A DNA stretch of 61,245 nt, filler included. It is 8 parts of 8 records of this genome, joined end to end, with 100 filler letters (N's around TTAATTAATTAA, not from the genome) between each part and the next. Parts side by side here need not be neighbours in the genome. Positions count along the whole stretch, not along the records: positions 51,470 to 61,245 come from SRR31147125_18941; 7 more parts are not named here. The stretch is one strand, 5' to 3'. The position numbers were made by a program, and so were the translations under genes. The stretch's first letter is position 1. Each line of letters opens with the position of its first letter. This document shows positions 3,686 through 61,245 of the stretch, in pieces. The notes below the pieces were generated by a model. It did not search any database, was not told the origin of the DNA, and saw only the letters and a program-made list of their open reading frames with translations.

Positions 3686-4120
3686 ATGAATGATTTATTA
3701 GATATAAATATTGCAAAGAAATATCGCGATATTGACAAAAACACAATTGCTATTATAAAAGATGGAAATACAATTTATAAAAGCAAAGAAAAAGGAATAT
3801 TACCATTATATAAAGCATATAGCAAAGGAATAGACCTTAGTGGTGCTAGTATAGCAGACAAAGTAGTAGGCAAGGGTGCAGCTATGATAATTGCTGATCT
3901 TAATGTTAAGCGAGTTGATACAATTATTATTAGTAAATCAGCATATGAATATTTACAAAGAAAAGAGATCATGGTATCATATACTAAGTTGACTGACTAC
4001 ATAGCTAATAGAGAAAAAGATGGTAAATGCCCGGTCGAAACTATGGCAGAAACCTCAACTGATTTTGACGCATTTATAAATAAAGTTAAACAATTCTTGA
4101 AAAGATTGGAGCTGATATAA
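3686..4120 (+). CDS. DUF1893 (TM1506-like) protein
   Basis: GILPL, ADKVVGKGAA and NREKDGKCPVE motifs. Confidence 0.9.
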   Translation: MNDLLDINIAKKYRDIDKNTIAIIKDGNTIYKSKEKGILPLYKAYSKGIDLSGASIADKVVGKGAAMIIADLNVKRVDTIIISKSAYEYLQRKEIMVSYTKLTDYIANREKDGKCPVETMAETSTDFDAFINKVKQFLKRLELI

Positions 4121-5387: not shown

Positions 5388-5487
5388 NNNNNNNNNNNNN
5401 NNNNNNNNNNNNNNNNNNNNNNNNNNNNNNNTTAATTAATTAANNNNNNNNNNNNNNNNNNNNNNNNNNNNNNNNNNNNNNNNNNNN
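5388..5487. other. Artificial contig spacer
   Basis: N44-TTAATTAATTAA-N44. Confidence 0.99.
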
Positions 5488-9246: not shown

Positions 9247-10128
9247 ATGAAAAAGATATTAATCGTAGTTTTAGCTTTAGTGCTAGCTTTTGCAATGTTC
9301 TCAGGCTGTCAAAAAGAAGCTGAACAGGAAGCTACAGAAAAGCCAGTAGTAACAGACGCACCAACAGACGAACCAGAGCCAACAGAAGCTCCTCTATCAG
9401 GCGAAATTACTGTATCAGGCTCAACATCAGTTGAAAAGATTGGTCTAGCACTTGGTGATGAATTTATGGCTATGTATCCAGAAGTTAAGTACACATACCA
9501 AGCTATCGGTTCATCAGGCGGAGTTGGCAACGCTAACGAAAACGTAACAATGCTAGGTACTGCTTCAAGGAACATCAAAGATTCTGAAAAAGAATACGGA
9601 ATGACAGAAGTTGTTTTAGCTTATGATGGTATCGCAGTTGTAGTTAACCCATCAATCACAGTTGATGAACTAACAATGGAACAAGTACAAAGCATTTACT
9701 TGGGTGACATCACAAACTGGTCAGAAGTTGGCGGCGAAGACAAAGAAATCGTTGTTGTATCACGTGAAGATGGTTCAGGTACTCGCGGTGCATTCGAAGA
9801 AATCGTTGATTTTGAAAATGCTCTAACAGATACAGCTACACTAAAAGAAGGTAATGGTGGTGTTCAAGCTTACGTTGCAACTACTGATAATGCAATTGGC
9901 TATGTATCATTCACATGGCTAGACGATTCAATAAAGGATGTTAAAATAGCTGGCGTAGAAGCAACAGTTGAGAACGTATTAGCTAATACATATCCTGTAT
10001 CAAGACCTTTCATGATTGTTTATCATGAAGATAATCTATCAGATGCAGCTAAAGAATTCTTGAACTTTATTACAACAGATATAGCTAAAGAAATCATCGA
10101 AGAAAAAGGTGGAATAGCTGTTGACTAA
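9247..10128 (+). CDS. pstS: Phosphate ABC transporter substrate-binding lipoprotein
   Basis: Lipobox FSGC; GSTSV, GSSGG and SREDGSGTRGAF. Confidence 0.95.
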   Translation: MKKILIVVLALVLAFAMFSGCQKEAEQEATEKPVVTDAPTDEPEPTEAPLSGEITVSGSTSVEKIGLALGDEFMAMYPEVKYTYQAIGSSGGVGNANENVTMLGTASRNIKDSEKEYGMTEVVLAYDGIAVVVNPSITVDELTMEQVQSIYLGDITNWSEVGGEDKEIVVVSREDGSGTRGAFEEIVDFENALTDTATLKEGNGGVQAYVATTDNAIGYVSFTWLDDSIKDVKIAGVEATVENVLANTYPVSRPFMIVYHEDNLSDAAKEFLNFITTDIAKEIIEEKGGIAVD

Positions 10129-12856: not shown

Positions 12857-12956
12857 NNNNNNNNNNNNNNNNNNNNNNNNNNNNNNNNNNNNNNNNNNNN
12901 TTAATTAATTAANNNNNNNNNNNNNNNNNNNNNNNNNNNNNNNNNNNNNNNNNNNN
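12857..12956. other. Artificial contig spacer
   Basis: N44-TTAATTAATTAA-N44. Confidence 0.99.
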
Positions 12957-18272: not shown

Positions 18273-18372
18273 NNNNNNNNNNNNNNNNNNNNNNNNNNNN
18301 NNNNNNNNNNNNNNNNTTAATTAATTAANNNNNNNNNNNNNNNNNNNNNNNNNNNNNNNNNNNNNNNNNNNN
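18273..18372. other. Artificial contig spacer
   Basis: N44-TTAATTAATTAA-N44. Confidence 0.99.
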
Positions 18373-28539: not shown

Positions 28540-28639
28540 NNNNNNNNNNNNNNNNNNNNNNNNNNNNNNNNNNNNNNNNNNNNTTAATTAATTAANNNNN
28601 NNNNNNNNNNNNNNNNNNNNNNNNNNNNNNNNNNNNNNN
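28540..28639. other. Artificial contig spacer
   Basis: N44-TTAATTAATTAA-N44. Confidence 0.99.
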
Positions 28640-35200: not shown

Positions 35201-35300
35201 NNNNNNNNNNNNNNNNNNNNNNNNNNNNNNNNNNNNNNNNNNNNTTAATTAATTAANNNNNNNNNNNNNNNNNNNNNNNNNNNNNNNNNNNNNNNNNNNN
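35201..35300. other. Artificial contig spacer
   Basis: N44-TTAATTAATTAA-N44. Confidence 0.99.
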
Positions 35301-45166: not shown

Positions 45167-45266
45167 NNNNNNNNNNNNNNNNNNNNNNNNNNNNNNNNNN
45201 NNNNNNNNNNTTAATTAATTAANNNNNNNNNNNNNNNNNNNNNNNNNNNNNNNNNNNNNNNNNNNN
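45167..45266. other. Artificial contig spacer
   Basis: N44-TTAATTAATTAA-N44. Confidence 0.99.
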
Positions 45267-51369: not shown

Positions 51370-51469
51370 NNNNNNNNNNNNNNNNNNNNNNNNNNNNNNN
51401 NNNNNNNNNNNNNTTAATTAATTAANNNNNNNNNNNNNNNNNNNNNNNNNNNNNNNNNNNNNNNNNNNN
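51370..51469. other. Artificial contig spacer
   Basis: N44-TTAATTAATTAA-N44. Confidence 0.99.
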
Positions 51470-53537
51470 CCGGCATCTGCAGATCCATCAGCACGGCATC
51501 ATACGGCGTGCCGTGTGACAGGGCCTGTTTTATCGATTGTAGCGCTTCCAGACCGTTTTGGGCGTCCTGCACATCTATTTCCACGGCCTCCAACAATTCA
51601 ACGGCCACTTGCCGGTTGATTTCATTGTCTTCCACCAGAAGAACCCGGGCACCGCCGATCGTCTGCACCCCTTCAACGGGGTTTGGTAAATACCGGGATT
51701 TAACGGTTTCACCCATGTCGGATTTTCCGAAAACCTCCATGACACTATCAAATAACAAAGAGCGATTCACAGGTTTTACCAAAAATCCCTCGATCCCCAC
51801 GGACAGGGGGTGTTTCAATATCTCTTCCCGACCGTAAGCGGTCACCATCAAAATGTGCGGAATGTGCAGCAGAGTGTTGTTTCCCTTTATTTTACGAGCC
51901 GCTTCAATGCCGTTCATTCCCGGCATTTTCCAGTCCATGAGCACCAACTGATATGGCGTTCCATGGATGGTCCGCTCAAGTTCAACAATGGCTTCCGGCC
52001 CGGAAGCCGCTTGAGTGACATCAAAGGAAAAGGACTCCAGGGCATTACAGAGAATTTCCCGAGCCACGGGATTGTCGTCCACCACCAGGGTTTTCAAGCC
52101 GTGTAGCTCTTCCGGACAAATCAACGGTTCGTCCTCTTCATTACCTGTACGGTCAAAGCAGGCGGTGAAAATAAATTCACTGCCCTTGCCGTAATTGCTC
52201 TTCACCTCTATCCCGCCCCCCATCATCTCCACCAGGCGCTTTGAAATATTCAAGCCCAAGCCGGTTCCGCCGTATTTCCGAGTGGTGGAGGTATCCGCCT
52301 GTGAAAAGGACTCGAACAGATCTGACATCTGCTCTTCGGTCATGCCGATTCCCGTATCCTTGACGGAAAATCGTAAGACAATATTACCTTCAATACTGCC
52401 TTCCGAATCGTTTTTTGCCATACGGGCATCTTTTTTATCCATTTCAATTTTAACGTGAAGATGCCCCTTTTCAGTAAATTTGACGGCATTATTGCATAAA
52501 TTGATCAACACCTGTCCCAATCGCAGCGGATCACCCGAAAGCGTCAAGGGAACATCTCTGTCCACATTGAACAACAGTTCGATTCCTTTTTCATCGGCTT
52601 TCATGGTGATCAAGTTGGATAAATTATCCAGCACATCCTCGAGATTGAAGGGCACCGATTCCATTTGGAGTTTGCCGGCTTCAATTTTGGAAAAATCGAG
52701 AATATCATTGATAATCCCCAGTAAAGACTGGGCGGAGCACTCGATTTTTTTCAGATAGTCCTGTTGTTTTTCCGTCAGTTCGGTTCTAAGCGCCAGCCCG
52801 GAAAGGCCCATGATGGCATTCATGGGGGTGCGAATCTCATGGCTCATGTTCGCCAAAAAGCGACTTTTGGCCTGATTGGCCTCTTCCCCCTTTTTAAGGG
52901 CCGCCTCCAATGCCAGGTTTTTTTGATCCAGCTCCCGGGTTCGCTCCGCCACCTTGGATGTCAGTGTACGGTTGTACTCTTCGAGCTTTTCATTGCTCTC
53001 TTGCAGTTTCACCCCGGTTTTTCGGAGGGTTTCCACCAACACTTCATTGTGATGAATTTGATGATGATAATCCACGGCATGCTCCAAAATTCCCAGCAGC
53101 ACATGGAAATTGCTCCCTTTGGTCACATAACCAAACGGGCGAAATTCGTTCATCACATCGTAGGGATCTTTCAGATCCTGATAGGCGGAGTGAAAAATAA
53201 TGGGCAGGTGAATGTAGAGCTGTTTCAGCTCTTTAAAGGTTTGAAACCCGTCTTTTTCCATCTTGATATCCAGAATGACGGCTGCCACATCCCCGCTCAC
53301 CGCCGCCACTCCCTGGTCGCCGTCGGAACAGGTGATGATCCTGAATTTGTCCCTCAACACCAGTTGAAGGGACTCCCGGATACCGGCATCATCGTCGATG
53401 ATCATTATCAGGGGGAGTTCATCGGTCCGGGCAAAATGTCCGGGGGACGACCGGCCGGTCAGCGGTTCGCTGGATTCGGTTTTATCTTTTAAATCAGATG
53501 TTCTTTCACGAAAGATATCAAATTCATCCACAGGCAT
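51470..53537 (-). CDS. Hybrid histidine kinase REC-HisKA-HATPase-REC-REC (3' truncated)
   Basis: [27 protein letters not shown] and three receiver domains. Start ATG 53537 follows GAGGA. Confidence 0.93.
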
Positions 53538-54003
53538 GGGAGACGTCCTCGTATTTTTGAAATGCGGTTTGAATGGTGACCAGCAGTTCCGAAACCGAAT
53601 ATTCTCCTTTGGTGAGGTATCCGTCATGGGGAAGTCCGGCAGTCGAGTCGGCATGGGCGTTGTCACCGGGATAGGCGGAGTGGAAGATGATTCGAATGTT
53701 CGGATTCAACCCTTTGAGCAGACTGAAAATCGTAATCCCGTCTTTTTGGGCCATTTTGATGTCCAGCAACGCCACTTTGACTTTGGCGGCCACGGCCTCG
53801 GCATCTTCAAAACAGTGGTGTGCCGACAGGCGATAGTGGGGTTTCAGAACCGTATGCAATGCCTCTATGACCTCGGGATTGTCATCGATGATCAACAGAT
53901 CTTCCTTGACTTTGGAGGTCAGCGATTCCGGGGGCTCTCTGAAAATCGAATCACGTATGGATTGAATGGTTTCCATGGCTTCGGATTTCCTCATTTGGAT
54001 CAA
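53524..54003 (-). CDS. Single-domain response regulator
   Basis: IIDD, LLDIKM, FHSAY and YLTKG. Confidence 0.88.
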
Positions 54004-54030: not shown

Positions 54031-57000
54031 TTACAGGTCTACCGGTAATTTCACATTAAAAGCGGCTCCATGTCCCAATTCGCTCTCAACAAAGATATCT
54101 CCCTTATAGAAAGAGATGATTTTCCTTACCACTCCCAAGCCAAGACCGGTACCGGTTTCGGGCTTGGTGGAAAAAAAGGCCTCGAAAATTCGGGGCTGAT
54201 GCTCAGCGGAAATTCCCACACCATTGTCACTCACTCGGACTTCATAACTAAGATCGGAAGCACTGGAAACAATTCGGATCTTTCGCGGATGATTCGCCGG
54301 CAATGATTCATCCAGCACGGCATCCCGGGCGTTCAAGATCAGATTTGAAAAAACGGATATAAAATGAGACTCTCTTCCGGTGATACGGCTGTTGTCGGCC
54401 GTCAATTCAATTTCCAGTTCAATGCCGTACCCGGCAAAATCGGATCGATATCCCTGTACCACGTCAAAAATGAGTTGATCCAGATGAAGGGTTTGACCAT
54501 TGGCGGTTTCCCGACCCAGGCGGGCATAATCCATGATTTGCTGGGTAATGGACAACCCCTGGAACACGGATTTATACGTGATATCCAGCACCTCATCCAC
54601 ATACTCTTCATTGGCAAATATTTTTTTCATGGTGGTCAGGACGTGATCCATATCCTCATCCGGCAGACGCCCTTTCAGGTAGAGAAAGATCTCTTTGAGG
54701 CTCCGACTGTTTTGCAAGGATAAACTGACATGGGGTTCAGGCTTGTCATATCCCAACGCCTGCTCAATGACCAGTTTCGACCCCACCAGGGCATTTCGCA
54801 TCTCATGGGCAAACCCCCCGGCCATCTGCTGCTCTGTGGCCTCTTTTTCAAGGGCAACAATCTGATCGTGCGCTTCGTTAAGCGCCTCTGTGCGCTGTTT
54901 TACCTTCTCTTCCAGGTTTTCCACCAATTCGGTGTTCTCCATGGAAATGGCGATCTGGGCCGACAGAATCCGCAACACCTCAAGCCTGGCTTCGGTAAAA
55001 GCCCCTTCAACCAGATTGTTCTCCAGGTACAAAATGGCAAAGAGTTCCCCTTTACTCAAGATCGGAAAGCACACTACGGATTTCGGCTGTTTTTTTCGAA
55101 TGTAGGGATCTTTTGCATAATGGCTCTCTTTACCGATATTCACAAATACCAGCTCTTCTTTGGTTCTGGCCACAAGATTGACAACGGATAAGGGAACGCT
55201 CCCGTACTCTTCCACAGCCAGGGACTGCATCACGCCGGTTACGCCGTCAACGTTGCCTTCCGCCTGAATGATGAGTGAGTCATTTTCACTTTTAATCAAC
55301 AAACTTCTTTGGGCACCGGCATTCTCAATGAGAATCGCCATCATTTTTTCCAGCAGATTTTTGAGTTTGACCTCCCCGGAAAGGGTTTGGGAAGCTTTCA
55401 TGATGCTTTGGATATCTAAGGCCGATTCCCTTGATACTTTAGGTTCTCTTGCCGATGTGATTGGAACACTTGGTTCGAGATATTTGGGATAACTGTTTTC
55501 CAGATGCTTTACCTTGGCGGTTGCCCCCATCGCCGGTAACAGTGGTACGCTTCCAGCAGAAAGAAAGAAGCGGATCTGGATTGCCCCGCTCCATATAAAA
55601 CTTTGCAGCCAGTTCACCGGCCAAAGCAGCCTCGTTGATATAACTGTTTTCATATGCCGTTTCCATGGCCTTTTCGTAAAATCCCGCCGCTTCGGTATGA
55701 TCCCCAGTTATTCGAAAATATTCAGCCTGCAACAAATAAAATTTATGCAAAAAATTTACCCGGCCGAACTCCGCCCATTCCTCAAGGGTTTTCATAGCTG
55801 TTACAGCTTTATTGAGGTAAATTTCTTTTTCATTGGGATCGGATGTTATGGTGTAAAGGCGCATGTAGGCCAAAGGAACATAAAACAGCGTATCACTGAT
55901 GACATAAGTCATGGGGACATTGAGATTGGTTCCATTTATCTCAGCGTCCGACAAGTGACTCGGAAGATCCTTATCCTCTTCAAACAGATAGGCGAGGATG
56001 ATGTTTTTAATATTGATCTGCCAGGTGAAGAGTTTTATCGTTCCCTCCTGGTGTCCTTGGAACAACTGTTCAAGATCGAGTTTCAGGGCGCCGGGATTTT
56101 CACTCTTCCCAAGTAACGCCTCATTATACGCAATTTCCAATGTCAGCGGCGGGGTCAATACCGATTGGTTTAATTGAATGATGCCGTTTAGATTGGCCTT
56201 GGCTTTTTCTCCGATTTGACTCAATTGCGTATCCGTACGGCTGAGGCACATAATATAGTTGGTAAGCATGTAGGCGGCATATTCAAAATCCCCAACATTT
56301 AAAGTGACAGGGTAGTGATTCATCATTTTTTGACAAACGTCCTGAAAATGGTGCTTTTGTCCAAACGTGTAGATGCATATAAATGCCACCGAACGTCCTT
56401 TGACCTCCTCATTACCAACCCCTTTATCCATCAATTCAAGTGCTGTATCGCTCAATTGATACGCGCTGACGATGTCCCCCATCAAAAGCCGAACAAAGGC
56501 GAAAAATGCAATGAGGTAGGGCGTCTCCTGTGAAAGTCCCTTTTTTAAAGTCAGCTTCATCAAATGGCCGACCACCACGGGAATAAGCTCGGTACCCGCC
56601 CAGATAAATGCCACTGCACCGATGTAAAACAGTCGCATTACCAGTTGATTGTCACTCTCTTTCATCCAAGAAAGCCGCTGAATGGATTCAACACCTTGTT
56701 GCGCCAGTATGTCATTGATTTCAGTTAGAATTGCCACGGTTTGCTCTTGCGTCGGGTTTCTCGGGATTTCAATATCCAGAGAAGCAAAAATTGCCAGCAA
56801 CGCATCAATGGCCCGAAGCGGTTGGTTTTGTGCAATGAGACTGAGCAGACGATACTCATAAGCGATGGAGCGCTCCTCCATGGCGTGTGTCGAAACCAAC
56901 ACGGTTTCAACCAAAGAATCCATCTCTTTAAAATCACCGCTGAGATAGGCGATTTGAACAGCTTCGTCATGGAGGGCCAGGGTCAAACCATGCTGGGTCT

Positions 57001-59325
57001 GCCAATGCCCCGACGGCAATAGACGGATTGCGCTTCGAATATATTCTGCGGCAAGTTTATACGCCGCAGATACTTTTGCGTGTCGTCCGGCCCGTAAGTT
57101 CAACTCCGCCAACTCCAACTTTTGGGTTTCATCGTCGATTAGAGCCATGCCGACATTCAAATGATTCACGACATTAAACAGCATCTCTTCCCTGTCTGCG
57201 GAGTGTAATGTCTCTTCAAGGGTTTTATAATTATCCAGCAATAAAAAACCGATTTTCAAATGCAGGGGAGGCCTGGCTTCTTGAGAAATCATGGAGTACG
57301 CTGCTTGCTGGATGCGATCGTGGATGAAACGATAATGGCCGGCATGTTCAGGCGTCAACAGCTGTTCCATGGTTGCGGCTTCAAGGGCGGCTTCCAAATA
57401 TTCGATACTTTTTCTCGAAATAATACTCAGGGTGGGGATGTCAAACCGATTACCGATACAGGCGGTCAGCTTCAAGATCTCCTGAACGTCGGAAGATAGC
57501 CCTTCGATCTTATTGCAGAGCAATTCAACCACATTGTCCGTAAGGTTTTTCTTTTTAATCTCGGTCAAATTCCATACCCACCGTTCTTCCCCGTGGTCGA
57601 ACTTTAACAGGTTCTCCTTAAACAGATTTTCAAAAAATGGATCGTAAAAAACGCATTACCTCCGGTTTTTTCATAAATGAGTGTTGATAGTTCCAACACC
57701 ATTTTTCTATGCGCCCCTTTTCTTATTCGTAATGTATCGGCCACCCAATCCTGGATGTTTTCGAATGAAAGATTTTCCAAAGGTATGGTGTTGACGGCAA
57801 TATGGTGTTGTTGAACCTCCTTCAACATCATCATCAATGGATGCACCGGAGAGACCTCGTTATCCCGATAGGCACCGATGAATAAAAGAGAATCGGTTTG
57901 CCGGTTCTCCATTAAAATCTGAAGCAAGTCCAATGAACCGGGATCTGCCCACTGCAGATCATCGATAAACATGACAAGCGGATGATCCTTGACGGATATG
58001 GCTTCAAAAAACCGTTGAAACACATAGTTAAATCGTCTTCTGGATTCATCACCACCAACAGTGGGAACATCCGGTTGCGGACCGATCACCGCCTCCAGTT
58101 TCGGAATAATGTCCGTCAATACTTTTCCCGATTGCCCCACTGCTCTTAGGATTCTCTCTTGCCAACGGATCAATTCACGCTGTTTTTCCGACAGCACCAG
58201 TCGACAGAATTGATTTAGGGCCTGTATAAAAGCGGCATAGGGGGTCGTCCGCTGCAATGGATTGAACTTTCCACTAATAAAATATCCATTGTCTTTGGTG
58301 ATCGGCCGATGGATTTCATTCACCAACGCCGTTTTTCCGGTACCGGAATAACCGGCAATCATCAAAAGCGTCTTACCGCCCTCCCTGACATCCTGATAGG
58401 CCTTCAATAGGTGGTCTATTTCTTCTTTGCGACCGTATAGTTTTTCAGGAATCCGGGGGATTCCGGAAATGTCTTTCTCCCCTAATTCAAAATCCGCCAT
58501 TCCCCACTTTTTCACCTTCTCCAAATCGTACTTCACCCCTAAGGAGGACTGGTAACGATCTTCCGGGTTTTTCGCCATCAGTTTTAAAATGATATCGGAA
58601 ATCACAGGGGGAATATTGGGATTTACGACATTGGGAGGTTCTGGCTCCCGTGCCAAATGGGCATATATCATTTCATTTGAATCTTCAGAAACAAAAGGAG
58701 GTTGACCCGTGGCCAATTCATAAAAGACCACACCGGCACTGTAGAGATCTGCCCGTTGATCCACAGTATGGTTCATACGCCCGGTTTGTTCCGGTGAAAT
58801 GTATGCCAGGTTTTCGGGGATACGCGTGACACTCTCATAGTATCCGATTTTCAACTGAATTTTGGATGCCCCGAAAAAATTGATTATTTTCAGGCTTTTT
58901 GTGTCAGGATCCCAGACGATATTTGCGGGAGTAATGGAGCCGTGGATGATATTCCGGGAATGGATGTCGGACAGTCCACTTGCGATGCCGTGTGCCAGCT
59001 CCACAAAAAGCGCCGTATTGAAAGACTTTAAAGGTAAATTGTCCTGCATCAAAGAACCGGGGGCATCCGCCATGACAACGGCGGGGAAAACAGAATGCTC
59101 GATCCATTCAACAGCGTCAATCACATTTTGAGAATCCACCTCTTCAAGAAAATTGAACTCTTGATGCAATTTTTTCACAATAGTTGGATCGGATGCACTC
59201 TTTTTTTCCAACAGCTTGATCATGCAGGGGCGATTATGGACAGTATGAACGGCGCGGTAGAGTAACGTATCGTCGTCTTGATGAATTACCTCTTTCAGTT
59301 GAAAATCCGGTATCCTCATCGTCAT
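54031..59325 (-). CDS. Giant S/T (pseudo)kinase-AAA ATPase-helical-GAF-histidine kinase, about 1765 aa, split by three homopolymer frameshifts
   Basis: YISPEQTGRMN, GYSGTGKT, FIDDLQWAD, WGATAKV, GAF (YLENN...AFT), AHEMRN and GTGLGL. Single-base losses near 57630, 55585 and 55526 restore one frame. Confidence 0.88.
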
Positions 59326-59467
59326 ACACCTCGGTTTTTGATGTAGTCGGTTAATTCAAAAATGGGGGATGCCCAAATCCATTGAAACGGTGAAAGCAAC
59401 GCAACACGCTACCCCTAGATCTAAGACCGATCATCAACAGGATCGGGACACGCTCCCCAAATTACGA

Positions 59468-59977
59468 TCAACAAGAACTTAGAATAATTTCAGCTTCAGG
59501 TGCATTCTTGAATTTATACTCGGTGAGCAAATCCGTCTCCATTGTGAAATACGGCATTACGATCACCATAGTATCACACTCATCCCGTTCAAAGGGAATA
59601 TCTACATTGAGTAGACCGGCATCCACCCGCTCGGAAACTTTTTGATTCAGCTTTCCATTTTGCTCAAAAACACTTTCGGTAATGGATAAAGGTCCTTCAA
59701 CATATTGCACCTCTCCTTTGTCTTTGTGAAAACTGGCAACGGGCCACCGAGTTCCATACGGGTCCAATTTGACAATGGCATCTTCGGGTATTTTCATTCC
59801 GACAAATTCTTCCAGCAACGGACGCGGATCACTCTCAAAAAATTCACGGATCCCTTCATTGGCGATGCAAGATGCCATCAACAGCATGTAACGTTCACAG
59901 ACCTTTTGCAATTTGAACTTGGGGTGAGCTTCTTCGAGCAATGTCAAAATGTTGTCCAATTTCATACTTTCAGCCAT
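59468..59977 (-). CDS. Nitrile-hydratase-leader-like (NHLP-like) protein; candidate radical SAM substrate; possible Sec readthrough to 59462
   Basis: LMASCIANEGIREFFESDPRPLLEEFVGMKIPED resembles NHLP leaders; ends EIILSSC-TGA-TCG-TAA; GAGGA RBS before ATG 59977. Confidence 0.65.
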   Translation of the reverse strand: MAESMKLDNILTLLEEAHPKFKLQKVCERYMLLMASCIANEGIREFFESDPRPLLEEFVGMKIPEDAIVKLDPYGTRWPVASFHKDKGEVQYVEGPLSITESVFEQNGKLNQKVSERVDAGLLNVDIPFERDECDTMVIVMPYFTMETDLLTEYKFKNAPEAEIILSSC

Positions 59978-60128
59978 AATTTTCCTCATAAATTAAGGTT
60001 TGGGGTATTTTCCGGAAATGAACCGGAAAGGGTGGTATGAAAGATTTCAATTCGTACCCAATCCACTGTCAGTGAATTTTCGATAAATGAAATCGAATCA
60101 TTCTTAGCGTGCCCGTATCCATGAAGAT

Positions 60129-61245
60129 CTAAATATAGGCAGTCTCAAACTGTGTCAATAGTAATGAAGATGCCGTGACAAGGGGAATGTACCAATCGTC
60201 GACAGCGATACCGAGCTTCTCTTTTACGGCCCAGCTTTGGTACTCTGTTTCCTGAAACTTTGCAGACACCATGATCTCCCTTGCCGTATCAAAATCGAGC
60301 ATATGGTGTTTTGTTTTCCCTGAACACGGCCGGGTATCCGCAACCAAATATCCGTTTGCAAAGGGCTTCATCACCAGATACGATTCTTTCCAGGATTTTT
60401 TCCATTCCGCCACTTTCGCAGCGATTTCCCGGATCAGTTCAGGACAATCATGGGCGCCGCTGGGATAATCTCCGATAAACCGATAGGCTGATCGGCTCAC
60501 ATCGATGTGATCGGGATAGACCATTTGATAGACCGCCCAGGGCCTCAGGTTCTGGATATTGTGTTCTTTCGGGTGCTCGAAATAGGTGCAGAAGCGATCC
60601 AAAGACAAATGCCGAAAAACCTCGGGAGGATTTAAATGATACAAGAGTGGCAACAAATCAACTGTTTCCCTGTAATCTTCGATCCGGTCATTTGGAAACC
60701 CCCAAAGCAGGTTATATGAGACAAAGAGTCCCAAAGCAGCGGCATTTCTCAACAATAATATATTTTGACGGACAGTTGCCCCTTTGTTGATGCTTTTCAG
60801 CAAACGGTTGGACAACGCTTCAATACCCGGCTTGATCACTTTGATATTGGTTTTTTTCAGATCGATGAGCTCCTGAAGGGTGAAATCCGCACGCAGCTCA
60901 CAAGTCTTGGACGAGGCGGCTGAACAACTGCCGAGCATCGGCAGAAGGTCTTTGCAAAAATCGGCAGGGAGCATCTTGTCCACAAACAATATGGGGTAAT
61001 TGGGGTATTTTTCCGAAAGGAACTCCAGCTCCTTGGCCACTTTATGTCGTGTTTTTTGTCGGAATGCAGCACGCTTGCCGTTCATCCCGCAAAACCGGCA
61101 TTTGCCCCACTCGCATCCCCGGGTGGCTTCATACCCCAGGGTAATCCCTTTGAGCGGACGCTCTTTAAAGAACGCCCCCATTTGATCAAAATAACTTTGA
61201 TACTCCGGCAAAGGGACGGCATCCAGATCCAGGACAGGATCTCCT
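60129..61245 (-). CDS. RiPP-maturation-type (B12-dependent class) radical SAM protein (5' truncated)
   Basis: EATRGCEWGKCRFCGMNG (CxxxCxxC), PGIEALS, YNLLWGFP, LYHLNPP and LDRF. Confidence 0.85.
   Translation of the reverse strand, partial: GDPVLDLDAVPLPEYQSYFDQMGAFFKERPLKGITLGYEATRGCEWGKCRFCGMNGKRAAFRQKTRHKVAKELEFLSEKYPNYPILFVDKMLPADFCKDLLPMLGSCSAASSKTCELRADFTLQELIDLKKTNIKVIKPGIEALSNRLLKSINKGATVRQNILLLRNAAALGLFVSYNLLWGFPNDRIEDYRETVDLLPLLYHLNPPEVFRHLSLDRFCTYFEHPKEHNIQNLRPWAVYQMVYPDHIDVSRSAYRFIGDYPSGAHDCPELIREIAAKVAEWKKSWKESYLVMKPFANGYLVADTRPCSGKTKHHMLDFDTAREIMVSAKFQETEYQSWAVKEKLGIAVDDWYIPLVTASSLLLTQFETAYI

Follow-up and report, generated by a model that had tools for sequence, protein, structure and literature searches.

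In the 61,245-nt stretch of DNA analysed here (the window; eight parts joined by filler letters), a radical SAM gene is followed by a gene for a small NHLP-like protein whose reading frame reaches a TGA directly after a cysteine codon. The locus raises the question of whether the protein continues past this TGA, as the initial annotation proposed in reading the codon as selenocysteine, and of what its neighboring enzymes would act upon if it does not.

The features concerned lie on the minus strand (Table 1). The two genes had been described as lying 150 bp apart on the same strand, and the spacer between them measures 151 nt. Direct reading likewise returned both the expected 169-aa protein (ORF 59468-59977) and the reported 3′ end, ATT ATT CTA AGT TCT TGT TGA TCG TAA, in which the TGA occupies positions 59470-59468 and the TAA positions 59464-59462. 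An ORF opened at an upstream in-frame ATG would span 59468-59989 and encode 173 aa, but the second ATG, at 59977, is most likely the start, because an AGGA ribosome-binding site is located 7 nt upstream of it and homologs begin there. The spacer also contains an inverted repeat, TTCCGG..CCGGAA, approximately 35-55 nt before the small-gene start. This repeat is common to the window and the corresponding locus of Desulfamplus sp. (L001) and absent from two other loci, L002 and L021, and thus it may only reflect close relatedness. The small gene is present in a single copy within the window, and the hybrid His-kinase/response-regulator gene comes after the kinase gene, as it does in L001.

Table 1. 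Features of the locus, in window coordinates
Feature	Position	Strand	Remarks
Radical SAM gene, C-terminal 371 codons	60129..61245	(-)	TIGR03975, PF04055; ORF 60129-61244, open at window end, stop TAG
Spacer between radical SAM gene and small gene, 151 nt	59978..60128	(-)	
Gene for 169-aa NHLP-like folded protein (..EIILSSC), TGA stop included	59468..59977	(-)	
TCG TAA 3′ of the TGA, non-coding; second stop two codons on	59462..59467	(-)	Conserved in 0 homologs
Inverted repeat GGGA-GCGTG-TCCC	59457-59445	(-)	Direct reading
Inverted repeat CCGATC-N8-GATCGG, overlapping the GGGA/TCCC repeat	59446-59427	(-)	Direct reading
Ser/Thr-kinase-like/AAA_16 STAND gene, first piece, 573 aa	57604..59325	(-)	Pkinase 8.6e-27, AAA_16 1.3e-42
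Kinase gene, second and third pieces (TPR-like, GAF, His-kinase ATPase), other frames	54031..57568	(-)	L001 alignment
Hybrid His-kinase/response-regulator gene	51414..53666	(-)	75% identity to L001 residues 1-685; interrupted by masked N runs

The codon after the terminal cysteine

The TGA is almost certainly an ordinary stop codon, and the encoded protein truly ends Ser-Ser-Cys. DNA was available for six loci, representing about three lineages of a family with 66 representatives, and in each of them a stop codon stands directly after the terminal cysteine: TGA in the window and in L001, and TAG in L002, L021, L022 and L023. Comparison of these C termini at the DNA level revealed neither a Cys/TGA continuation nor a conserved hairpin. 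Read-through past the TGA would add a single serine before the next stop in the window and 18 unrelated codons in L001. Moreover, the window and L001 are identical at 77 of the last 90 coding nucleotides (86%), whereas over the 140 nt past the stop the identity falls to 86 of 158 positions with gaps (54%), and the indels in this region are not multiples of three.

Several features of the region would nevertheless suit the incorporation of selenocysteine, with an ..SSC-U-S end serving as a redox-active or modified core. A TAA is found two codons past the TGA in the window, the small GGGA/TCCC hairpin begins 13 nt past the TGA with a similar GGG..CCC element in much the same position in L001, and related genomes carry selB (G001, 366 bits) and selA (G001 and G822). 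However, G822 terminates its own copy of the small gene with TAG even though it possesses selA, and a cysteine-containing tail is the natural end of the protein across the family. TGA closes three of the 30 long open frames in the window. Both downstream repeats that had been pointed out in the initial annotation are indeed present, but the RNA that contains them shows no unusual tendency to fold: the 74 nt beginning 3 nt before the TGA yield -16.2 kcal/mol where shuffled sequences average -18.05 (z +0.72), with 157 of 200 shuffles folding at least as well, and the region downstream of the L001 gene gives a z of -0.23. An Rfam search of the downstream RNA produced no SECIS-type match, the only match being a chance one to a snoRNA (E 7.8), and no terminator was found when the downstream repeats were scanned.

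The selenocysteine reading is refuted because the homologs end Cys-TAG and the downstream sequence is unconserved, and we assign it a very low probability. The likeness to bacterial selenoproteins that end in Cys-Sec is limited to the superficial pattern in the window of a cysteine, a TGA, one codon and a stop; the conserved UGA, the conserved coding sequence after it and the stable, conserved hairpin of those proteins are all absent from the small-gene loci compared here. An SSC-U-S tail is thus rejected, which removes the claim of a seleno-RiPP as a false lead.

The small-protein family and its fold

A profile search (E<=0.001) places the small protein in an unnamed family with 66 representatives at 50% identity, 34 of them at E<=1e-10. 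The family is mostly metagenomic, and its hosts are Desulfobacterota-type MAGs. The earlier view of it as undescribed held up: no Pfam or NCBIfam model exists for the family, the small protein alone matches nothing in these two collections even at E<=1, protein-cluster annotation offers nothing beyond 'hypothetical protein', and no published description was found in the literature searched (supplements aside). Wider genome samples contained very few matches: one in 401 genomes at the order level and two in 401 at the phylum level, the second of these two being a classic NHLP. A tblastn search of plasmids with the small protein gave no match.

From 72 distinct homologs we drew an alignment of 69 sequences, leaving out P0013 (88 aa), P0045 (2121 aa), and P0048 and P0054 (76-77 aa), the last two of which comprise the N-terminal part only. 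The protein opens with a helical, NHLP-like domain (residues 26-90 or so in the 173-aa numbering) and continues with a body rich in beta structure; its C-terminal part consists of a conserved segment, P-[YF]-F..D.L.E.KF..E-I-I-L, and a tail of three to four Ser/Thr/Cys residues. This tail is the only Ser/Thr/Cys-rich part of the protein, and it is conserved in type and variable in detail. It ends in Cys in 46 of the 69 sequences and in Cys-Cys in 15, and a Cys occurs within the last four residues in 58, counts that include two members with unrelated ends (P0047 and P0072); the 11 tails with no Cys among their last four residues keep Ser/Thr there. The seven close homologs all end LS[ST]C, and the E-I-I-L that precedes the tail is conserved to an equal degree. 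Elsewhere in the protein, Cys41 is conserved in 58/69 sequences and Cys138 in 32/69.

An AlphaFold2 model of the small protein (pLDDT 88.7, pTM 0.79) confidently predicts a well-folded body with a flexible tail, the last three residues scoring approximately 60. Two structural statements of the initial annotation are upheld, namely that the protein contains a long beta-rich insert (about 55 residues), and that it lacks a Gly-Gly cleavage site, given that no Gly-Gly motif occurs in the protein or in the aligned homologs. Structural comparison of residues 26-87 with the NHLP structure 8tb1 aligned 59 residues at an rmsd of 2.5 Å (Z 4.0), a weak match at rank 44 that lies below the tool's meaningful level. 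The same limit applies to the best structural match of the beta part, to galectin-like sandwiches (VIA-align Z 5.3, rmsd 4.9 Å, 77 residues), and a Foldseek search of the PDB returned no match at E<=0.001.

The description of the protein as NHLP-like is also supported by profiles. Among known structures, the family profile matches a nitrile hydratase alpha subunit (1v29_A, E 0.0033) and an NHLP (8tb1_A, E 0.043), and it also retrieves classic Gly-Gly NHLPs from other genomes. Among the 69 members, 28 match the leader_NHLP model TIGR03793 at E<=0.01, with a best value of 8.8e-8, although the window protein itself gives no match to this model at E<=1. The nitrile hydratase models TIGR01323 and PF02979 are each matched by one member. 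A possible assignment to TIGR03795 failed, with none of the 69 members matching that profile at E<=0.01. Judged by these profile relationships, the family is an unnamed branch of the NHLP clan, and its similarity to TIGR03793 points to homology at the level of the clan rather than to membership.

Conserved partners and the probable fate of the tail

The radical SAM gene is, by profile match, a B12-binding-type member of the TIGR03975 family of RiPP maturation C-methyltransferases. The window fragment matches TIGR03975 at 1.7e-82 over profile positions 230-551 of 606, its score of 277.9 bits remaining below the cut-off of 281.85 because the gene is cut by the window end; it also matches PF04055 (3.7e-10) and shares 82% identity with the L001 ortholog (649 aa) over residues 268-634 of the latter. 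Full-length orthologs exceed the cut-off (L001, 389 bits; L021, 376; L023, 381), as does the cut copy in L002 (313). A TIGR03975 gene co-occurs with the small gene in every locus seen, in agreement with the pairing first noted in the window.

A second partner is found in the relatives, where a fused E1-like/YcaO cyclodehydratase of the SagD type, with an E1-like leader-binding domain, is encoded near the small gene. The proteins from L001, L002 and L023 score 260-272 bits against TIGR03604 (cut-off 219.25) and 136-139 bits against TIGR03882 (cut-off 36.9), and G820 and G822 also carry orthologs. In the window this gene is out of view because the sequence stops within the radical SAM gene. Among the 161 genomes of the G001 family, the small gene occurs in four, which are exactly the four with a YcaO ortholog scoring >1450 bits. 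None of the matches to the SagB-type model TIGR03605 in G001, G820, G822 and G827 falls in the cluster, each being either on a different contig or separated from it by ~330 kb or more, and this model also fires in nine of 14 control genomes, over its cut-off in four.

The third partner is a protein of ~1760 aa (1769 aa in L001) with Ser/Thr-kinase, STAND, TPR, GAF and His-kinase parts, which is accompanied by two-component partners. In 6/6 loci, the next gene downstream of the small gene is the kinase gene. Although the set of YcaO, radical SAM and kinase partners is constant in the relatives, three gene orders are observed: YcaO, radical SAM, small gene, kinase in L001; radical SAM, YcaO, small gene, kinase in L002; and small gene, kinase, radical SAM, YcaO in L021 and L023. 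L022 has the same ORF layout as L021 and L023, with its YcaO gene confirmed by ortholog search. The flanks consist of housekeeping genes that differ between loci. The small protein is genetically locked to the YcaO fusion, the TIGR03975 radical SAM enzyme and the giant kinase.

These linkages, together with the family names of the enzymes, suggest that the Ser/Ser/Cys tail is probably modified by the neighboring enzymes, and we consider it likely that the YcaO and radical SAM enzymes together use the small protein as their substrate. In this respect the initial annotation, which had proposed the tail as a modified or redox-active core, was near the mark: Ser/Ser/Cys forms the end that the family conserves and that is probably modified. 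A YcaO cyclodehydratase recognizes structured NHLP leaders, according to the available text of Wakeel et al. (2025; PMC12455567). By this scheme, the E1-like domain of the YcaO protein would dock on the NHLP-like domain, ATP-dependent cyclodehydration by the YcaO domain would turn the tail Cys, and possibly the Ser residues, into thiazoline or oxazoline, and the radical SAM enzyme would methylate an unactivated carbon near the tail. Against this scheme, YcaO enzymes do not usually act on three residues attached directly to a folded domain, and in 11 of the 69 tails the final four residues contain no Cys.

Alternatively, the small protein might play an accessory, scaffolding or regulatory part, such as partnering the (pseudo)kinase, with the YcaO and radical SAM enzymes acting elsewhere; its terminal Cys, perhaps together with Cys41 and Cys138, would then bind metal or form a redox switch. 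The predicted well-folded structure, the conservation of the two internal cysteines, the invariable position of the gene directly upstream of the kinase gene, and the binding of metal through Cys by nitrile hydratase alpha relatives are all in keeping with such a role. However, no other candidate precursor was seen in the loci, the small gene being the only NHLP-type gene in each, and the co-occurrence of the small gene with an orthologous YcaO is a perfect 4/4 phyletic match. In addition, the tails that lack Cys keep Ser/Thr, which fits cyclodehydration better than metal binding. We therefore regard a non-substrate role as very improbable.

If the small protein is a substrate, its ~165-residue body might still be a very large leader, from which an unlinked protease frees a tiny azoline-containing or methylated tail molecule in the manner of a classical RiPP or cofactor pathway. 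The freed molecule could be a signal for the neighboring GAF/His-kinase protein or an exported metabolite. Short C-terminal cores yield small molecules in the mycofactocin and PQQ pathways, NHLP domains are known leaders, and sensor proteins are always adjacent to the small gene; the confinement of Ser/Thr/Cys-rich sequence to a tail of constant type and variable detail would also be expected of a core. Against this, no protease or transporter gene occurs within about 10 kb in L001, L021, L022 or L023, and neither a Gly-Gly site nor any other evident cleavage motif is found. The E-I-I-L just before the tail, being as conserved as the tail, suggests that it belongs to the functional end of the protein. 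Release of the tail by this route seems unlikely.

The preferred reading, which we hold with good confidence as the best overall explanation, combines an ordinary stop codon, a folded protein of the NHLP branch, and modification of the tail by azoline formation and methylation. No azoline dehydrogenase was found near the small gene in the relatives, and no ABC or HlyD genes were seen in the locus flanks. Because genes for a dehydrogenase, a protease and an exporter are all missing from the neighborhood, the product may remain in the form of a modified protein or be a small molecule derived from the tail; more speculatively, in either form it would work with the adjacent sensor kinase rather than as a secreted antibiotic.

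A functional link of the small protein to the kinase system is, on balance, somewhat doubtful. In both the window and L001, the catalytic residues of the kinase domain are gone; in the window, HGS replaces HRD and NFF replaces DFG, such that the catalytic Asp and the DFG Asp are missing. The window gene is also split over three reading frames: its first piece is 73% identical to L001 residues 3-570, while the counterparts of L001 residues 568-1251 and 1259-1769 lie at 57637-55586 in frame -3 and at 55569-54034 in frame -1, respectively, the frame breaking near 57630 and 55580. Given these losses and frame splits, the kinase link may be regulatory, degenerate or irrelevant. The fullest version of the proposal, in which YcaO and the B12 radical SAM enzyme, instead of producing a peptide for secretion, install a heterocycle and a methyl group on the three-residue C terminus of a folded ~19-kDa protein that serves inside the cell as partner, ligand or switch of the STAND (pseudo)kinase/GAF/His-kinase sensor, is rather unlikely. 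If true, it would represent azoline modification at the protein level for signaling, and the kinase/cyclase clusters of NHLP-Burk would then provide a second case, independent of this one.

Comparison with known systems

Nitrile hydratase alpha subunits (TIGR01323, PF02979) share with the family only a distant helical-domain similarity of ~60 residues. According to the available text of Cox et al. (2015), these subunits bind metal via Cys in a CxxCSC motif; this metal site is missing from the corresponding position of the small proteins, and their loci contain no gene for a beta subunit.

Proteusins, as represented in the accessible portions of the sources cited, derive from classic NHLP precursors (TIGR03793) and employ YcaO and/or B12 radical SAM C-methyltransferases, with examples including nostatin A (PMC11583998), polytheonamide PoyB/C (cited in PMC11583998) and MprE/MprC (PMC12455567). 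Their likeness to the small-protein family extends to a structured NHLP domain, recognized in proteusins by an azoline-forming YcaO, and to a class B cobalamin-type C-methyltransferase in the cluster. As described there, classic NHLPs have a leader of ~80 residues, a Gly-Gly site, a hypervariable core of 14-59 residues and usually a peptidase-transporter, whereas the present family has a folded body of ~165 residues, a tail of three to four residues and no cleavage motif, and its loci lack a transporter, protease or dehydrogenase.

The closest known system is the NHLP-Burk TOMM system (TIGR03795), whose clusters occur in Burkholderia, Delftia and Acidovorax in the available text of Haft, Basu and Mitchell (2010; PMC2887384), and for which we found no experimental characterization in the literature searched. 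To the extent covered by that text, the two systems share an NHLP-related protein without a Gly-Gly leader cleavage site, a long conserved part followed by a suffix that is very short (in NHLP-Burk, 108 and 11 residues, respectively), an adjoining fused cyclodehydratase-docking protein and large Ser/Thr kinase, and the lack of a cognate transporter. They also share a C-terminal Cys or Cys-Cys, and the statement in the initial annotation that BMA_0021-type proteins end Cys-Cys agrees with this source. There, the NHLP-Burk genes form a tandem or fused pair, whereas the small gene is single in the window, G001 and L021-L023. The family further differs in its extra beta-rich insert, in its Desulfobacterota-type hosts, and in the GAF and His-kinase modules of its kinase; this kinase matches the kinase/cyclase model TIGR03903 through its kinase and STAND parts only (122 bits against a cut-off of 705). 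The loci of the family also have a further constant member in the TIGR03975 radical SAM gene, whereas 'radical SAM' does not appear as a term in the available text of Haft et al. (2010).

The family is thus a set of protein-sized NHLP relatives with a tail of three to four Ser/Thr/Cys residues, tightly linked to YcaO, a B12 radical SAM enzyme and a sensor kinase, in loci without the export and cleavage genes typical of antibiotic RiPPs. It offers a compact test case for how YcaO enzymes cope with a substrate that is folded and has only a minimal core, and it bears on whether the kinase-bearing NHLP-Burk-type clusters predicted in 2010 are signaling devices rather than bacteriocins.

The stop codon of the small gene

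Direct reading of the window bears out the initial annotation's account of a radical SAM gene, a 169-aa gene, the end codons of the latter and two inverted repeats behind it. The radical SAM ORF covers positions 230-551 of the 606-position TIGR03975 profile (1.7e-82; 277.9 bits, the cut-off being 281.85) and matches Pfam Radical_SAM at 3.7e-10; a spacer of 151 nt separates it from the small gene downstream. The ATG at 59977, which has AGGA 7 nt upstream and is the same start as in all close homologs, was taken as the likely start of the small gene, giving the originally described length of 169 aa.

Features in and around the small-gene locus of the window
Feature	Position	Strand	Remark
Radical SAM ORF	window end to 60129	minus	truncated TIGR03975 protein, 5′ part beyond the window end
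Inverted repeat TTCCGG..CCGGAA	~60010-60035	minus	35-55 nt ahead of the small gene; L001, ~9955-9980
Small gene, longest ORF	59468-59989	minus	173 aa
Inverted repeat 1 after the small gene	59457-59445	minus	named in the initial annotation, present
Inverted repeat 2 after the small gene	59446-59427	minus	named in the initial annotation, present
Kinase protein gene	54031-59325	minus	split over three reading frames
Hybrid His-kinase ORF	51414-53666	minus	interrupted by a pair of N runs

The gene ends ATT ATT CTA AGT TCT TGT TGA TCG TAA, and the TGA had been proposed to encode selenocysteine, giving an SSC-U-S tail. This proposal was not borne out: the TGA that follows the terminal cysteine is a plain stop. 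The close homologs, seven in number with 49-83% identity and lengths of 168-171 aa, all end in ..LS[ST]C, and the DNA of the gene ends was compared between the window, which served as reference (TGT TGA TCG TAA), and five other loci. In L001, from a Desulfamplus sp. MAG (83% identity to the window protein), the gene end reads TGC TGA TCT AGA AAT and continues for 18 codons without a stop. The metagenomic locus L002 (49% identity) ends TGT TAG, and L021, L022 and L023, from three genomes of the bacterial family of genome G001 (~30% identity, a 161-aa member), end ACA AGC TGT TAG; the last three are almost identical to one another and were therefore counted as one lineage. Four of the five other loci thus end in Cys-TAG, and the sequence after the stop is not conserved: identity between the window and L001 is 77/90 over the last 90 coding nucleotides and 86/158 with gaps over the 140 nt after the stop, where indels are not multiples of three. 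This DNA-level comparison gave the very outcome that the initial annotation had named as contrary to its proposal.

The hairpins after the TGA are unremarkable. For the 74 nt beginning 3 nt upstream of the TGA, the folding energy is -16.2 kcal/mol, as compared with -18.05 +/- 2.56 for shuffled sequences (z +0.72); of 200 shuffles, 157 gave folds as good or better. A terminator scan found none, and Rfam gave nothing but a snoRNA match of the kind expected by chance (E 7.8). The lineage could make selenoproteins, as Sec machinery occurs in relatives: G001 carries selB (366 bits, cut-off 242), and selA is present in both G001 and G822, although the small-gene copy of G822 ends in TAG. Of 30 long open frames within the window, 3 stop at TGA.

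Two further structures flank small genes. In L002, a strong G+C-rich hairpin (4005-4040; -29 kcal/mol, z -2.94) directly follows the small-gene TAG, ahead of the kinase gene, and may serve as an attenuator or a stabiliser between these two genes; the window showed no counterpart. The TTCCGG..CCGGAA repeat is common to the window and L001 and absent in L002, L021 and L023, and could be an operator or merely a mark of close kinship between the first two.

A folded NHLP-clan protein with a short tail

The window protein had no match in Pfam or NCBIfam at E<=1. A family profile built from eight close sequences was searched against 1.84 billion representatives. It matched 66 proteins at E<=0.001, of which 34 reached E<=1e-10 and 6 reached E<=1e-30; most have 150-190 aa and align through their last residue. 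The resulting alignment, A3, comprises the window protein and 68 homologs, with four rows omitted (an 88-aa fragment, a 2121-aa protein and two N-terminal pieces of 76-77 aa). Cysteine is the terminal residue in 46 of its 69 members, 15 of them ending Cys-Cys, and occurs within the last four residues in 58; the tails of the remaining 11 hold just Ser, Thr, Ala or other residues, two of them with unrelated ends. The consensus C-terminus is E-I-I-L-[ST]-x-C, at times followed by one residue (S, T, A or P). In the numbering of the 173-aa ORF, conserved positions are Y34, C41, F51, P55, L59, G64-M65, I67-P68, D76, W82-P83, E98, P146, D153, L155, F160, E167, I168, L170 and C173.

Kinship with nitrile-hydratase-leader-peptide (NHLP) proteins is evident from TIGR03793 (leader_NHLP), matched by 28 of the 69 members at E<=0.01 (best 8.8e-8), and from family-profile matches to nitrile hydratase alpha (1v29_A, E 0.0033) and an NHLP NMR structure (8tb1_A, E 0.043); weak profile matches in genomes are textbook NHLP precursors, ..ELTDEELELVSGG followed by a core. 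AlphaFold2, given the 69-sequence alignment, returned a confident single domain (mean pLDDT 88.7, pTM 0.79) with helices at 11-20, 26-43, 45-53 and 56-63 and strands at 71-76, 84-89, 92-99, 102-109, 114-120, 140-146, 156-158 and 168-170, confidence falling to ~60 at the last three residues. Foldseek found no PDB match to the model at E<=0.001. In VIA-align, residues 26-87 superposed on 8tb1 with Z 4.0, at rank 44, over 59 aligned residues (rmsd 2.5 A). For the beta part it offered only generic galectin-like sandwiches, the best at Z 5.3 over 77 residues (rmsd 4.9 A), under the tool's meaningful level. The small protein therefore belongs to the NHLP clan: it is folded, carries a beta-rich extension and ends in a short, flexible tail of Ser/Ser/Cys. 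The NHLP-like helix and beta-rich insert originally described were right.

Cross-matching also brought up a separate NHLP subfamily at L018, L019 and L020 (G933, G889), with ~200-aa precursors carrying a tandem pair of NHLP-like repeats, a Gly-Gly site and a hydrophobic core with a Trp end.

A four-gene module and its kinase protein

In the window, the radical SAM gene alone lies upstream, and a Ser/Thr-kinase/AAA_16 gene and then a hybrid His-kinase gene lie downstream; the window's own YcaO gene falls beyond its end. L001 runs response regulator, fused E1-like/YcaO (752 aa), TIGR03975 radical SAM (649 aa, 389 bits), small gene, 1769-aa protein (Pkinase, AAA_16, TPR, GAF, HATPase_c) and hybrid His kinase, its YcaO matching TIGR03604 (1.6e-80, 271 bits, cut-off 219) and TIGR03882 (1.5e-39, 136 bits, cut-off 36.9). 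L002 reads radical SAM, YcaO (753 aa), small gene, kinase. In L021 and L023 a hybrid His kinase and a response regulator-GGDEF precede the small gene; the 1757-aa kinase protein comes next, then the radical SAM (618 or 609 aa, scoring 376 and 381 bits) and YcaO (753 aa), and L022 was assigned the same order through its identical ORF layout. The same four genes are thus kept together across three different gene orders.

The family is rare, occurring in 1 of 401 genomes of an order sample; in a phylum sample, 2 of 401 had a profile match, the second being a weak NHLP match. Among 161 genomes of G001's bacterial family, four have a strong small-protein profile match, and the YcaO ortholog (>1450 bits) occurs in the same four and no others. 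In G928 (L024 6975-11152), the next-best YcaO, a fused gene of 749 bits, adjoins a classic 99-aa NHLP gene, not one of the long family. In G927 (L025 660-4910), of the same bacterial family, a fused YcaO of 532 bits lies beside a 636-aa ORF, and an NHLP-like gene was not detected. The module is flanked by unrelated housekeeping genes (Obg, L21, ferredoxin, glucokinase, alanine racemase, cobalamin synthesis), with no protease, ABC or HlyD transporter genes seen in the flanks. In G822, cobalamin biosynthesis genes (L021 1672-3728; a CbiE/CbiT fusion and CbiF) precede the module by about 6 kb, a suggestive association with a B12-type radical SAM enzyme, seen in one lineage alone.

The kinase domains of L021, L023 and L002 keep H-[RK]-D..N and D-F-x, whereas those of the window (catalytic loop at 58900-59000(-)) and L001 (10786-11700) read HGS/HSY and NFF/NFI at these motifs. 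Both catalytic aspartates (HRD, DFG) are lost and the domain is otherwise conserved, so that in this lineage it is probably a pseudokinase. This speaks for a role in binding or regulation, and against a phosphorylation step in biosynthesis. The window gene is an ortholog of the single L001 ORF for the 1769-aa kinase/STAND/GAF/His-kinase protein; its frame breaks, close to 57630 and 55580 where the sequence is rich in A/T homopolymers, stem from indel errors in the assembly or from decay of the gene. N runs occur at seven sites (5388-5487, 12857-12956, 18273-18372, 28540-28639, 35201-35300, 45167-45266 and 51370-51469), each consisting of two 44-nt runs with 12 bases between, and look like masked stretches rather than biology.

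Predicted chemistry and relation to known systems

E1-like/YcaO fusions of the TIGR03882/TIGR03604 type dock the leader and then cyclodehydrate peptide Cys, Ser and Thr. Judged from the gene content, the YcaO enzyme would turn the terminal Cys of ..LSSC, and possibly the Ser residues too, into azolines. These would stay azolines, as no dehydrogenase is linked to the cluster; SagB-type matches lie far away. A folded NHLP leader is recognised by the YcaO MprC via protein-protein contacts (PMC12455567), and TIGR03975-class enzymes are cobalamin-type C-methyltransferases of proteusins, as discussed for NstA and PoyB/C (PMC11583998). The radical SAM enzyme is predicted to methylate a carbon near the tail. 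More speculatively, the modified product would act with the adjacent sensor protein.

In the literature searched (main texts, few subscription journals), we found no description of this small-protein family and no characterisation of NHLP-Burk (TIGR03795). The latter is the nearest described system: according to Haft et al. (2010), it is an NHLP relative without a Gly-Gly site, with a very short suffix and a Cys or Cys-Cys end, encoded near a fused cyclodehydratase and a large Ser/Thr kinase and without a transporter. On paper, the small-protein family resembles this layout. It is not, however, a member of NHLP-Burk: none of the 69 A3 sequences matches TIGR03795 at E<=0.01, the small gene is single whereas NHLP-Burk is a gene pair, the protein has an additional beta-rich body, the loci have a constant radical SAM partner, and their output is a His kinase rather than a cyclase. 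Nor is the small protein a classic proteusin precursor, because it has neither a cleavage motif nor a variable core. As read from its sequence, the locus is a variant within a kind of TOMM-type system that is known yet still uncharacterised; its putative substrate is unusually protein-like, and the core is minimal.
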